Source: Eledone cirrhosa (taxonomy: Eukaryota). Taken from it: DNA of 64,000 nt. The notes under the pieces were generated by a model. That model did not search any database. It was not told the origin of the DNA and saw nothing but the letters and a program-made list of their open reading frames with translations. The position numbers were made by a program, and so were the translations under genes. Each line of letters begins with the position of its first letter. Position 1 is the first letter of the stretch. Location: contig OZ024759.1 of NCBI GenBank assembly GCA_964016885.1, forward strand, positions 15,810,001-15,874,000. Direction: 5' to 3'. Below, piece by piece: positions 976-61,307 of the stretch.

Positions 976-1112
976 ATAGGAAAAGAGTCAGGATCCCGAC
1001 GCCCGAACTGTTGGGTTCCTGACTCTTTTCCTATTACCCACTCTACTACCCTAAGTATTGAGTACTCTGGTGCGTTATGGTCCACCTGGTATCCTACCCC
1101 ACCCTCTTTGTT
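976..1112 (+). mobile_element. TA-flanked foldback element, family A (short copy)
   Basis: Inverted arms 976-1000/1010-1034. The body ttacccactctactaccctaagtattgagtac...tccacctgg is shared with the copies at 2133-2323, 14196-14530 and (partly) 60508-60616. Confidence 0.8.
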
Positions 1113-1152
1113 ATATATATATTTATATATATATATATATATATATATATAT

Positions 1153-1606
1153 ATAAAATATTAAAAAAATAATGAATAAAACAATGAAACAGTTCCTTAT
1201 ATTAAACAAAAAGTTCATTATTTAACGATCGTTTCTAGGACATATATGTGTTAGAATTGGCATGCATATTCAACAGATCTATGTACAAAATTATACAAAA
1301 TTATACAAACTATCAAATAGAATATACATACCAACACATACATATGCCGTCTTCAGAAATAATCAATTCTAACACATATATGTCCTAGAAACGATCGTTA
1401 AATAATGAACTTTTTTTGTTTAATATAAGGAACTGTTTCATTGTTTTATTCATTATTTTTTTAATATTTTATCTTGACTCTGTATTCCGTTTATCTTTCA
1501 CCGAAAGTGATTTTTGAATGCATCTCTTCTTTCCATGATATCCGGATTACATTGAGTTCTTCATACGGATTGGACACTACCGTAAACTTTTGGTAGATTT
1601 ATCTAC
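1153..1606. mobile_element. TA-flanked foldback element with hammerhead ribozyme
   Basis: Inverted arms 1153-1259/1364-1472, a unique tail to 1606, and (TA)n on both sides. Confidence 0.85.
1217..1363 (-). ncRNA. Type I hammerhead ribozyme with long helix II
   Basis: Minus strand: attattt-CTGAAGA-long imperfect helix II-GAAA-CGATCG-T-T-aaataat. Helix I is 7 bp and helix III is the palindrome AACGATCGTT. Confidence 0.75.
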
Positions 1607-2132
1607 ATATATATATATATATATATATATACGCCACCTACAAATGGTTATAACCTATAGGCTATATTAGAAGACGTATAGGACTGTGTGTGTGTGTGTA
1701 TATGTGTATACCTTTATGTGAGTATGGGTGGCTCAGTGTGCATATCTATGATTTTGCGTATATGTGTGTGTGCATGTATATGTGTGTGTGTGTGCATGTA
1801 TATATATGTTTACTTGTATGTGTATGTGTGTGTTCGTCTATGAAATATGAAATTCTAGTCTAAATCTGGCAGACAGTTATTATGGTCAGTCTCTCCTATC
1901 TTTTATATTTGAAACATTTCTCATGTCTAGACAACGATGAATGGGTGTCCTATACAAACTTAAATGTCTATTATAATTATATATGAGTATATTTATATAT
2001 GTATGCAATCATATATACACATAAACAACCACATATATACGTGCGCGTGATTTTCTTTTTGTATATGTATGTATATATTTATATATATATATATATATAT
2101 GTATGTAGGTATGTAGAGGTATCTAGGTATCT

Positions 2133-2323
2133 AAGGAAGTGTGGTAAGGAACCAGGTGAACCATAACGCACCAGAGTACTCAATACTTAGGGTAGTAGAG
2201 TGGGTAATAGGAAAATGTTTAACCCCGACGGCAGAACTCAAGCCATTTCGACCGGTATTTCTGGACAGTTCAGAAATAGCCGTCGAAACGGCTTGAGCTC
2301 TGTCGTCTGGGTTAAACATTTTC
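2133..2323 (-). mobile_element. Family A foldback element carrying the HHR 3' half in a terminal hairpin
   Basis: Hairpin arms about 2211-2263/2271-2323 contain GAAACGGC-ttgagctct-gtcGTC. The body is the reverse complement of 1030-1100. Confidence 0.8.
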
Positions 2324-3584
2324 ATATATATATATATATATATATATATATATATATATATATATATATATATATATACGTATGAGTATAGTTATCTATG
2401 TAGGTGTGTGTGCATTTATATATATATATATATATATATATATATATATATATTTCTCACGTCTAGACAAGGATGAATGAGTGATCTATACAAATGTCTA
2501 TTACATTTATATACACATATAGATGTGTATATTCATGTATGTATTCATATATACACACACGCACAGACACACACATATATGTATTTCAAATATATATATG
2601 CATTTATATAGACAGTCACACACACACAGACACACATATATATATACACACACAGGCATATGTTTCTATACGTATGCTTTTATCCATCCATATATACATA
2701 CTACTTACACACGTATATATTTTAATATATGTGCATTTATATATGCATACACGCATATATATATGTGTGTGTGTGTGTGCATACATACATTGTGCGTGTG
2801 CGTGTGTGTGTGTGTATGTGTGCGTGCGCGCGTTCATACACACACAATATGTCTGACCGTTGTTGAATCGGGAGCAGTGAGTGAATAAAACATCAATACC
2901 GACAATGGGATGGCATAATTGGTCCCATTGAACAGGAGAGCACAAAAGCAAAACAAATAAGGGGAAGTAACAACATATACAACAACAATAACGAAAATAT
3001 CATAAAATAACTAAACGAAAAACAAAATAATAACAAAATGGCGGATATCGAAATGAAAAAAAAAATGGACGAGACGAAAGGTCGGTCTCCTCTTGAAAGA
3101 TTACGTTGAAAGTGGAAAAATGGCAATAATATAAGAAAGAGGGGAATGAAAAGAGGAGAAAGGGGGGAATGAAAAGAGATGAAATAAAACGGAAAGTGAA
3201 TAAATAGTACTATAATAAGGTGAAATGAAAGAAAGAGAAAAAAAAGAATTAGGAAAGAAATATATAAAAGAAAGAATACGATGAGGTGAGATGAAAAGAT
3301 ATAAATAAATACTCTCTAAATATATCTATTTTTGGTATATAGCAGAAAGTTATGTGAGGTTGTGTGTTTATATATATATATACATGCAGACACAGAAGTG
3401 TAGACAGACTTACACATATGCCTAAATATATATATACATACTCACATCCATATGCACAAATATAAGCTTAGGTATATATCTATGTACATATATATATATA
3501 TGCAGACACAGGCATGTAGAGACAGATAGACTTATACATATGTCTAAATAGATATACATATTCAAAACTATATACACAAATATG

Positions 3585-4635
3585 CCCATATATATATATA
3601 TATATACATATATACATATATATATATATATATATATATACATATATATATACATATATATACATATATATATACATATATATATACATATATATATATA
3701 CATATATATATACATATATATACATATATATATACATATATATATACATATATATATATACATATATACATATATATATATACATATATACATATATATA
3801 TACACATATATACATATATATATATACATATATACATATATATATACACATATATACATATATACATATATACATATATATATACATATATACATATATA
3901 TACATATATACATATATATATACATATATACATATATATACATATATACATATATATATACATATATACATATATATACATATATACATATATATATACA
4001 TATATACATATATACATACATATATACATATATACATACATATATACATATATACATATATATATACATATATATATATATACATATATATATACATATA
4101 TATATATATACATACATATATACATATATACATACATATATACATATATACATACATATATACATATATACACATATATATATATATACATATATACACA
4201 CATATATATATATACATATATACACACATATATATATATATACATATATACACATATATATATACATATATACACACATATATATATATACATATATACA
4301 CATATATATATATATACATATATACACATATATATATATATACATATATACACATATATATATATATATATATATATACATATATACATATATACATATA
4401 TACATACATATATACATATATACATATATATATATATACATATATATATATATACATATATACATATATACATATATATATATATACATATATATATATA
4501 TACATATATATATACATATATACATATATATATATATACATATATACATATATATATATATATATATATACATATATATATATACATATATACATATATA
4601 CATATATACATATATACATATATATACATATACAT
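3585..4635. repeat. (TA)n/(TACA)n compound microsatellite, representative of many similar blocks (22.7-23.9, 27.6-29.1, 30.6-31.5, 32.4-33.1, 34.2-35.4, 43.8-45.0, 47.8-49.2, 50.5-53.0 kb)
   Basis: Direct inspection. These blocks produce the YI/HI/CV-repeat ORFs in the track. Confidence 0.97.
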
Positions 4636-5569
4636 ACAGGCATGTGTAGACAGATATACTGATGCATATGTCTAAATGAATATACATATTCACATCTATA
4701 TGCACAAATATACACATAAGTATAAATGTGTATGTATATTATGCAGATGCATTCTCTTGTACATGTATGTATATATAAAGAACTCAATACTTTTGGAAAT
4801 AAAGTATTCCGCTGAGAACAATATCCAACACGCTTCAGACTTTCACTGTTTTATAGCTCTCCAGATCTATGAAAAGAGTGAAACGACGCTTCGGCGTATA
4901 GAATATTATTCTCATATATATATATATATATATACATATATATATACATATATATATACATATATATATATATATATACATATATATATATATATATATA
5001 TACATATATATATATATATACATATATATATACACATATATATATATATACACATATATATATATATACACATATATATATATATACACATATATATATA
5101 TATACACATATATATATACACATATATATACACATATATATATACACACATATATATACACACATATATATATACACACATATATATATACACATATATA
5201 TATACACATATATATATACACATATATATATATACACATATATATATATACACATATATATATATACACATATATATACACATATATATACACATATATA
5301 TACACATATATATATATACACATATATATACACATATATATATACACACATATATATATACACATATATATATACACATATATATATATACACATATATA
5401 TATACACATATATATACACATATATATACACATATATATATACACATATATATACACATATATATACACATATATATACACATATATATATACGCATATA
5501 TATATATATATACACATATATATATATATACACACACACATATATAGATATACAGATATATATATATAT

Positions 5570-59456: not shown

Positions 59457-60242
59457 TATATATATATATATATATATATTATACATAAGTATACGTTTTA
59501 TATATATATATATATTATACATAAGTATACGTTTTATGTATATATATATATATGTATTATAGATACGTATACGTTATATATATATGTATTATAGATATGT
59601 ATAGTTTATATATATATATGTGTGTGTGTGTGTGTACGTATAATATATATAGATTATTATATCACATATATATATATATGTGTGTGTGTGTGTGATATAT
59701 ATATCACATATATACGTATATATTGGATTTTAGTCTTCACAATTATTATATATATATATATATGCACAAATACATTTAGAAAATAATACATACATGTTTA
59801 CGAATATATACAAATATGCACATACTCACAGGAATACATATATAAATACATATACATATTACATATTCAGAGTTCTTCATGCTCTTCCAACGAATTAGCA
59901 AACGAAACAGTCAACTAGTTAAGCTAATGAATTCCTTAAGAATACTGCATACATTGTCTATTTATATACACATCATAGTTCATTGGACTGAATCACAACT
60001 ATCCATAGATCAAAAGATCTTATGCTGAAAATAATTTTTATTGAATTTCATAATCCCAAAACGCGCTCAACCAAACTTCTTTCAAAGTTAGCCTAGAATT
60101 TCGTTGCCTTCTAATCATACTGATCAAACGGTAGAATATATTTGACTTGGGCAGTTTTCTTGTAGAATCTAATCATAATATAGAAGGCATCTGAAGGCTG
60201 AGGCTGAAGAAAGATGGCGTTTCTTGCCAAAATGATGATAAT

Positions 60243-60424
60243 AATTGTTTCTACTTTAGGCACAAGGCCAGCAATTGCCCAGTGCATTACTGGTACTTTA
60301 TTTTATCGACCCCGTAAGGATGAAAGGCAAAGTTTACCTCGGCGGGATTTGAACTCAGATCGTAAAGGGACGTAACTATGGTGGAAAGCATGGCGTCCGA
60401 CCCTCTACTGATATTGCCAATCCA
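60243..60424 (-). mobile_element. SINE family C
   Basis: Homologous to 8127-8333. Confidence 0.82.
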
Positions 60425-60507
60425 AAGTATTAACGGAATGTAAATGGTACTTTTTTTAATATTATATATATATATATATATATATATATATATATATATA
60501 TATATAT

Positions 60508-60616
60508 AAAACGAAGGAGGTATGGTAAGGAACCATATGGACCATAACGCACCAGAGTACAGAAATAGCCGTCGAAACGGCTTGAGCTCTGCCGTCGGGT
60601 TTAAATTTTTTCCCAT
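60508..60616. mobile_element. Family A element: minus-strand tail joined to a plus-strand HHR 3' half
   Basis: ggtaaggaacc...gcaccagagta joined to cagaaatagccgtcgaaacggcttgagctctgccgtcggg. Confidence 0.75.
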
Positions 60617-60882
60617 ATACATATATATATCGTCATAGATTCTTATAGCCAGTCAGATATATATATATATATATATATATATATATATATATAGTCATAG
60701 ATTCTTATAGCCAGTCAGATATATATATATATATATATTTATATTTATCGTTTATCCATTTATCGTTTTCGGTGCGCCCGGCCGACTAAACTCACTCGAT
60801 ATGCAAATTAGACTGCTCAGCCGTTAATATGCATAAGGAAAGTATGTACTTTCAGACGATCAACCATCTGGCAGGAAGGTAT

Positions 60883-60925
60883 ACGATGCTGACGATAGCT
60901 AATAAGCTTGAAACTAGTACATCGT
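60883..60925 (+). ncRNA. Canonical minimal type I hammerhead ribozyme in a TA-flanked cassette (60745-61050)
   Basis: acgatg-CTGACGA-t-agct-aata-agct-t-GAAA-CTAG-T-A-catcgt; helix I is extended by cagga/tcctg. Confidence 0.9.
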
Positions 60926-61307
60926 TCCTGTGTCAGTGTTGAACAAAAAGGTGACGTGGTTGCCTAAACACTGTACGGCGTAATTCGGGCTGTTTGTTTG
61001 TTTACAAACAAACCGAACATTATAATAAATGTTCGGTAAACCGATACGTGCATATATATATGTGTGCATGTTTGTATATATATACATACTACTGTACGTC
61101 TGTATACATATATGTATGTACGTATACATACATACTTATATATATATATATATCTATATGACTATAAGAATCTATAACGATATGTCAAAACATGATTAAA
61201 CCATGTATTGTATGTGCTAGTATGTGTGTATATATATACATATATCCATGTACATATATATATATATGTGTGTGTGTGTGTTTGTACGTATATACATATA
61301 TATATAT

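Follow-up and report, generated by a model that had tools for sequence, protein, structure and literature searches.

The 64,000-nucleotide stretch of the Eledone cirrhosa genome analyzed here (GenBank assembly GCA_964016885.1, contig OZ024759.1, positions 15,810,001 to 15,874,000; below, the window, with coordinates counted from its first nucleotide) raises the question of how its (TA)n runs came to hold many short cassettes, often duplicated head-to-head and bearing a type I hammerhead ribozyme (HHR). An earlier note on this DNA had explained all of them as non-autonomous mini-elements, i.e. pseudo-long terminal repeat (pLTR) or retrozyme-like RNAs aimed at TA and moved in trans by a Penelope-like element (PLE) lying elsewhere. 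The PLE origin, the pLTR or retrozyme nature, and the targeting of (TA)n were all borne out. Judging from sequence comparisons, the cassettes are very probably insertions that PLE machinery targeted to (TA)n runs. Families A, B, and G match pLTRs beside PLE open reading frames (ORFs), and the non-autonomous families F, L, D, and C, in which no PLE ORF is present, share the footprint of A, B, and G.

The window has a G+C content of 31% and contains 450 TA runs of at least 12 nt, in a genome of 3.0 Gb. The (TA)n boundaries and head-to-head arms described in the earlier note were confirmed: nine foldbacks with arms were called in the masked window, which was also compared by self-BLAST, and foldbacks were present in seven of the 11 families named in that note, with E, I, J, and L represented by single arms. 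The cassettes are non-coding, as had been stated, the longest ATG-initiated ORF among 21 of them being 77 amino acids. A tblastn search of the window, for which two PLE proteins served as queries (E<0.01), revealed no PLE ORF, and ORFs combining a reverse transcriptase (RT) with a GIY-YIG endonuclease were found elsewhere in the genome, in agreement with the prediction that the master element lies outside the window. An origin as miniature inverted-repeat transposable elements was rejected, since arm lengths vary and the ends fall at unequal fixed sites.

Copies adjoining an ORF with both RT and GIY-YIG, for which the earlier note had proposed a search, were found for families A, B, and G, which are 5′-truncated, inverted 3′ pLTR ends of three autonomous PLEs located elsewhere in the genome. 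The family A foldback (14189–14527) has an HHR core at 14299 on the minus strand, with U3-A8 and a 54-nt helix II; the family B foldback (1156–1606) has its core at 1356, also on the minus strand, with a 114-nt helix II; and the family G foldback (27077–27625) contains an HHR-like motif at 27440. The window arms were 96–99% identical to the pLTRs of two ORF-bearing A loci (L013 and L015), 98–100% identical to those of two B loci (L115 and L117), and 95–97% identical to the pLTRs flanking the G ORF. In L013 the order is TA run, pLTR, HHR, ORF, 3′ untranslated region (UTR), HHR, tail, and TA run, with the A copies 3.5 kb apart, and in L015 a stop-to-stop frame of 801 amino acids lies between the A copies. 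On its upstream side, family B continues through a long UTR to the end of an ORF (L115), downstream it leads into the start of one (L117), and G forms partial tandem pLTRs around a 798-amino acid frame (L065). The HHR lies in the terminal repeat of both A and B, the arms of which end at TA in 82 of 99 and 42 of 43 cases, respectively.

The A ORFs (L015 and L013) are single frames with RT followed at the C-terminus by a GIY-YIG endonuclease, recognized by YRDD and VIY...YIG motifs. Both the A and the B ORFs contain RLRWR or RVRWR together with SDKTG, a CxCX5C motif in the linker (intact in L013 and L115, changed in L015), and, within the endonuclease, CxxC and CxH. Section 11 of PMC8557442 lists RW(K/R), DKT, CxCX5C, CxxC, and CxH as Hydra-clade features, and these motifs, together with comparison by eye, point to A and B being two PLEs of Hydra-clade type. 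The G ORF contains GxKF, EKG (DKG-type), the RT core, and GIY-YIG at the C-terminus, and by these motifs G is classed as a canonical PLE. No significant match between the A and G ORFs was found by BLASTP, so they represent distant PLE types. A phmmer search returned 739 relatives at E<1e-30. Other Hydra-type ORFs, 35–48% identical to that of A, were seen at L066, L067, L029, L163, L171, and L174, indicating a large radiation of the clade.

The TA-ended arms of each family stop at two fixed 3′ sites, one near and one far. The two are 42 nt apart in C and G, 62 nt in K, 83 nt in A, 89 nt in H, 91 nt in I, 122 nt in F, 137 nt in B, and 138 nt in D. After 22 overlapping or window-derived loci had been dropped, and with L excluded since its reference matched TA repeats, 94 of the 97 head-to-head TA-ended pairs from nine families combined a near end with a far one (A 25/26, B 14/14, C 24/24, D 1/1, F 8/8, G 4/4, H 4/5, I 8/8, and K 6/7).

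This rule bears directly on the possibility that the foldbacks are library or assembly chimeras, or that they arose by DNA hairpin repair in TA runs after insertion. Palindromes can be artefacts in AT-rich long-read assemblies. A chimera, however, is hard to reconcile with arms that end at two different family-specific sites and whose sequences differ by a few percent, and the foldback geometry of PLEs has already been published. The contigs of three public sequencing runs contained 349 joints on 12860–14560, those displayed being shortened foldbacks, and also loose ends running into TA at the near site of A; as the three runs derive from one sample of one study, possibly the source sample, they constitute weak evidence, and the two-site rule is the stronger argument. 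Chimeras or hairpin repair are thus exceedingly unlikely to account for the foldbacks.

The complete PLE footprint, consisting of two fixed 3′ ends, a one-sided tail, an inverted arm, and a (TA)n target, was also found in C, F, and D. Families F, L, and D are non-autonomous. Family F (23937–26976) is a non-LTR retrozyme with a 559-nt unit, present as approximately five direct units plus a short inverted arm, with one HHR per unit (24590, 25149, 25710, 26270, and 26829); a short F fragment bearing both ends lies at 49541–49637. Elsewhere, F occurs as dispersed tandem arrays, 97–100% alike and often head-to-head. Family L (60739–61136, plus strand; HHR at 60889) is one unit of a tandem retrozyme, the HHRs of which are spaced by 413–552 nt at other loci. 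Both F and L have the properties of retrozymes, being dispersed and non-coding, with tandem units that each contain a type I HHR. The family D foldback (13291–13666; HHR at 13556) forms the end of a non-coding unit of 2.6 kb that lies between direct pLTRs and lacked a PLE ORF at one complete and one partial locus. The two-site footprint of the F arrays appears to be a direct sign of PLE-type insertion, and it is absent from the passages of the retrozyme preprint and paper covered here.

The family H foldback (41774–42309; HHR at 41968, minus strand, and near 42115) represents an element of approximately 320 nt, with a recurrent 5′ end at that length and no ORF in four loci. It is nested in the central TA run of an outer foldback of another family (41624–41708 and 42335–42410), and at L073 a copy of F is similarly nested within the central TA run of an outer foldback.

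We can now return to the proposal that all the cassettes are independent non-autonomous mini-elements moved in trans. It holds for F, L, D, and C, which are closed or ORF-less units, and H, with its recurrent 5′ end and no nearby ORF, is in line with it. Families A, B, and G, however, lead into 3′ UTRs and PLE ORFs on their upstream side and into the starts of ORFs downstream, and this continuity refutes the proposal as a general statement; that it should apply to every cassette is very improbable.

Family C, which the earlier note had missed, has a 271-nt tandem unit with a tRNA-like head. Its foldback occupies 12880–13258, with ends 42 nt apart, and the tRNA-like sequence (13042–13113, plus strand) matched Rfam RF00005 with 42.4 bits (gathering threshold 29) and is followed by a T5 run. 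ARAGORN called a tRNA at five of seven C loci, and the head contains A- and B-box-like motifs, of which the B-box-like motif was seen in the sequence. Other copies show the unit to be a closed one of 271 nt: at 25 loci (22 once overlaps were removed) arms extend across its junction, and arms attain lengths of 611–749 nt. On the sense strand of C there was no HHR candidate with at most one core mismatch and a stem I of at least 3 bp, and the tRNA was the sole clear match to C when Rfam was searched to E=10. In 19 of 72 cases the arms begin approximately 10 nt or less from the tRNA 5′ end, which is compatible with either a start of RNA polymerase III (Pol III) transcription or cleavage by RNase P. 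With T5 runs at unit positions 82 and 171, most Pol III transcripts would terminate without reaching the priming sites, and the template would then have to come from read-through or Pol II transcripts. When the C unit was compared with public sequencing runs, no RNA run was listed.

The tRNA head with its box-like motifs, and the arm starts close to the tRNA 5′ end, would also be expected if C were an ordinary tRNA-derived short interspersed element (SINE) or a satellite derived from one, moved by a long interspersed element (LINE) and expanded by unequal crossover, with the TA flanks as a simple-repeat tail; tRNA-derived tandem SINE-like elements do exist, as described for Sm-alpha in the sections cited below. 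Yet C does not have the single LINE-type 3′ tail and the monomeric insertion with target duplication of a SINE, and instead has two fixed 3′ ends, is circularly permuted, and forms multimers and head-to-head arms. The two ends occur one each in all 24 head-to-head pairs, arms span the unit junction at the loci mentioned above, and at L082 (approximately 1496–1990) a head-to-head insertion consists of one A arm and one C arm with no TA between them. Since a LINE tail or crossover would not yield the two ends, the junction-crossing arms, or the A–C joint, an ordinary SINE is an unlikely explanation. The joint itself may reflect either a mixed-template event or a later deletion between neighbours. 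Taken by its sequence features, C is probably a PLE-mobilised tRNA element. Some C arms (L120, L128, and L131) end in the anticodon loop, at unit positions 38–43, representing a minor third 3′ end, and in L131 this end abuts a Hydra ORF fragment without a TA run.

The enrichment of HHRs over dinucleotide-shuffled sequence, which the earlier note had named as a check, was pronounced. A descriptor for type I HHRs (CUGANGA or UUGANAA as the core, stem I of at least 4 bp, stem III of at least 3 bp, and helix II of at most 350 nt) identified 17 distinct cores in the window compared with 1.82 ± 1.20 (maximum 6) across 100 block dinucleotide shuffles. With stem I of at least 5 bp and stem III of at least 4 bp, the numbers were 10 and 0.20, and with a second descriptor that also required helix II, they were 11 and 0.32 ± 0.56 (60 shuffles). 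Among the 17 cores, five belong to the tandem copies of F, two to the arms of K, and two (10499 and 40912) are likely chance matches. Nine of the 11 families in the earlier note satisfied an HHR descriptor, and most of the positions given there passed the first one (1217, with its core at 1356, 13552, 14211, with its core at 14299, 16443, five copies from 24585, 41919, 54252, 59343, and 60883). Those at 42568 (3-bp stem I) and 42115 were recognized by eye only, and the motif at 53998 is weak, 13 of its 20 copies having C rather than U at core position 4. The 27440 motif of family G failed both descriptors and is not a canonical HHR, as it reads UUGAUGG, without A9, in all 23 printed matches; G is a young, ORF-bearing family. 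Two further motifs were absent from the earlier note: an HHR at 17435 on the minus strand, which satisfied both descriptors, and a minimal HHR-like motif near 37510, seen by eye.

The HHRs do escape Rfam, as had been anticipated: at gathering thresholds the whole window gave no hammerhead, and its single match was the tRNA of family C. An E-value scan of the window was dominated by microRNA-like hairpins, with no hammerhead among the matches listed (150 of 1004). Although Rfam misses the ribozymes, repeat annotation does detect PLEs in octopus. When single HHRs were folded, the z-scores were mixed (−2.9 to +0.8) and were not taken as evidence, and a DNA alignment of 12 HHRs was uninformative.

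The families searched proved to be multicopy, where single copies would have spoken against mobility. The genome searches, in which 40 loci were scored each, gave as first-look candidates 3410 for A, 1251 for B, 850 and 1975 for C, 757 for D, 1308 for F, 1474 for G, 1643 for H, 4520 for I, and 1814 for L. The search with K gave no candidates, being blind to very common words, and K was found in seven copies in a sample of 40 evenly spaced 10-kb stretches (400 kb) of the genome. The same sample contained 14 matches to family A and 39 matches to the HHR descriptor, compared with 1–6 in eight shuffles, i.e. approximately one HHR per 10 kb. A (TA)5 sequence was located within 250 nt downstream of 32 of these 39 matches (background 21%), and in 30 of 44 foldbacks a TA run lay no more than 12 nt from one end. 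Extrapolated roughly, the genome would contain some 2–3 × 10^5 HHR motifs.

TA runs of at least 12 nt make up 12.5% of the window and 4.3% of the 40 stretches; the window is thus about three times richer in TA, but not special in kind. The cassettes cluster in these runs, which could mean that the elements themselves drive expansion of the (TA)n arrays; the earlier note had raised a possible coupling between the two. The targeting of pre-existing TA runs yields the same picture and explains the association, and we regard an active role in expansion as doubtful. Three segments between TA runs (16981–17321, 49163–49414, and 53294–53755) had no match among the other loci compared.

In the mechanism we propose for PLE-type insertion, a dimeric RT/GIY-YIG protein would nick both strands of a (TA)n run, and cDNA synthesis on the RNA would be primed twice, from the near internal site and from the far site. 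The two cDNAs would usually stop early and join 5′-to-5′, giving a foldback with an extra tail on one arm, so that each foldback would represent a single event with one cDNA from each site; long syntheses would give partial tandems or tandem arrays. Non-autonomous units would use the same machinery in trans. The HHR would trim multimeric RNA, probably as a dimer, and be dispensable for insertion, and in C the tRNA gene, as a Pol III promoter and/or an RNase P site, would define the RNA 5′ end in place of the HHR. In the sections of PMC11167929 used here, an Anolis PLE nicks and extends both strands in vitro, reverse transcription begins at two internal sites lying at the limits of the genomic tail, dimerization is predicted, and HHR cleavage is dispensable. 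The corresponding part of PMC8557442 describes an inverted copy with a one-sided 30–40-bp tail. The PLE interpretation is also supported by G, young and ORF-bearing with a non-canonical HHR, and by the tail common to G and family T (below).

Several observations weigh against the PLE interpretation. The tails of 62–138 nt are longer than those published. Pfam assigned no family to two A ORF translations, and the RT and endonuclease call therefore rests on motifs and homology. The ORF copies found are interrupted, by a frameshift near the start in A and by stops in others. The loci in the end-pair count are best hits, some of them segmental duplicates, and 94/97 is thus a strong pattern but not a random sample. 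Finally, no tail among the compared ends firmly links C, F, D, H, I, or K to an autonomous element. The G end and family T (54372–54640), an imperfect foldback, have 33 nt of 3′ tail in common (z 9.5); four other pairs reached z 3–4, which is weak after 45 comparisons, the B–D match was weak, and neither C nor F had a match to the tail of an autonomous partner among these ends.

Additional members of family A in the window comprise an A-related short foldback end with the tail of family A (976–1111), a short foldback with the 3′ half of the HHR only (2101–2323), a single arm of a subfamily (42514–42682, plus strand; HHR core UUGAAAA near 42568), a small palindrome related to an A subfamily (52955–53030), and a short foldback remnant (60509–60615). 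The family K foldback (59097–59452) has a U3-A8 HHR on both arms (59268, minus; 59347, plus). Single arms on the minus strand represent family I (53858–54108), with an HHR-like motif that has C at core position 4, and family J (54129–54348), with an HHR at 54289. Family E (16440–16646, plus strand) is a decayed HHR-bearing end with a G-U-rich stem I. The HHR at 17435 belongs to family N (17390–17440, minus strand), which had 10 matches in the 400-kb sample, and the motif near 37510 to the minimal HHR-like end of family M (37480–37620, plus strand), recognized by eye and multicopy. Families V and Y (13690–13927, 53180–53240, and 59700–59760) are multicopy TA-flanked ends whose window copies have no HHR.

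Other repeats surround the cassettes. A broken LINE with endonuclease and RT, CR1/L2-like by eye, occupies 45046–47824 with long TA arrays on its flanks and a 60-nt local inversion inside it (46434–46493), and 3′ fragments of RTE-like LINEs, again judged by eye, adjoin TA runs at 29972–30604, 31540–32365, and 39400–39770. A 93-nt tandem repeat (20180–21364; 12.7 copies, 96%) is related to a dispersed SINE-like repeat at 8517–8600. SINE-like repeats are abundant at 8100–10460, 38130–40545, 57860–58050, 60230–60424, and 63350–63800, one of them forming a 211-nt dimer (40127–40533). Five copies of a repeat of approximately 55 nt, GC-richer than its surroundings, lie at 62445–62720, and a decayed, coding-like transposon fragment was seen by eye on the minus strand at 40700–41560.

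In its main features the pattern belongs to known PLE biology, and an Octopus example has been published. The supplement of PMC8557442, in the part used here, gives Hydra-1_Obim from Octopus bimaculoides with a (TA)n preference and an HHR, and Hydra-clade PLEs including this one are described, like A and B, with a C-terminal GIY-YIG, an HHR close to the 3′ end, insertion into (TA)n, truncation at the 5′ end, and an inverted copy tailed on one side. Compared by eye, the A ORF follows the RT sequence printed for Hydra-1_Obim. Compared with the description of that element, the present genome has several young families, with a helix II of 50–114 nt, U3-A8 cores, tails of 83 and 137 nt, and, for family A alone, the 14 matches in 400 kb. 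The G HHR without A9 differs from those described for canonical PLEs (Neptune, Nematis, and Poseidon, and the Anolis PAc of PMC11167929). The minimal PLE HHRs of PMC4209133 are, in the passages used, likewise type I with a palindromic helix III, an unpaired base after A9, and known U3-A8 cores, and opposite-strand pairs 100–700 bp apart are attributed there to truncated PLEs. That source reports thousands, whereas the density found here would extrapolate roughly to the 2–3 × 10^5 given above, and several of the present HHRs have a longer helix II or III.

Non-LTR retrozymes, as described in PMC7229834, which defines them, and in a preprint (bioRxiv 10.64898/2026.07.22.740005), resemble F and L in being non-coding tandem units with one type I HHR each. 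The RNAs described are of 170–400 nt, in contrast with the 559-nt unit and head-to-head arrays of F, and neither Octopus nor inverted arrays appear in the main text of PMC7229834, as far as it was covered. The preprint argues from distribution and pLTR similarity that retrozymes are non-autonomous PLE derivatives and, in the part used, leaves the mechanism open. The closest known element to C is Sm-alpha of Schistosoma, which, according to the parts of PMC6765202 and PMC2770079 that describe it, is also tRNA-derived, tandem, and dispersed, with a Pol III promoter inside the unit. Sm-alpha has an active HHR, whereas C has none detectable and in addition has PLE-type foldbacks and TA targeting. 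Among non-autonomous PLE derivatives, Chlamys elements such as MRC1 form head-to-tail copies, and the passages of PMC8557442 used report no tRNA or HHR for MRC1. The tRNA-bearing TRIMs (miniature retrotransposons with terminal repeats) named Helenus (PMC10886601) resemble C in that a non-SINE retroelement has captured a tRNA; unlike C, they are described as LTR elements with a primer-binding site, a polypurine tract, and 4–5-bp target duplications. A tRNA-bearing, PLE-mobilised element was not found in the open-access literature, a search that did not extend to Repbase, Dfam, or octopus repeat libraries. In the portions available, an O. vulgaris repeat annotation of 2026 contains 31 recently active PLE families, and in the O. 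vulgaris library of PMC13282606, 893 SINE families are listed as recently active and unclassified; C could be among them.

Novel aspects of this picture are its scale, the presence of the two-site footprint on arrays of retrozymes, and unit C with a tRNA in place of the ribozyme. From the sequences, we give roughly even chances to the full proposition that C is an undescribed PLE parasite, in which the place of the HHR is taken by a captured tRNA, serving as Pol III promoter and/or RNase P site, and insertion is by PLE protein, and that, together with it, the F arrays provide footprint-level evidence for two-site PLE priming of animal retrozymes in a genome with perhaps 2–3 × 10^5 HHR motifs.

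With regard to scale, HHR-bearing PLE ends occur approximately every 10 kb and are invisible at Rfam thresholds. The near-plus-far rule constrains models of second-strand synthesis by PLEs. For the question of how retrozymes move in animals, the F arrays, with their exact footprint, name both an enzyme class and positions on the RNA. If the proposal for C is true, C would be the PLE counterpart of SINEs: a tRNA-headed unit with a PLE footprint would extend SINE-like parasitism to PLEs, and it would favour a role of the ribozyme confined to defining RNA ends, in which it can be replaced.

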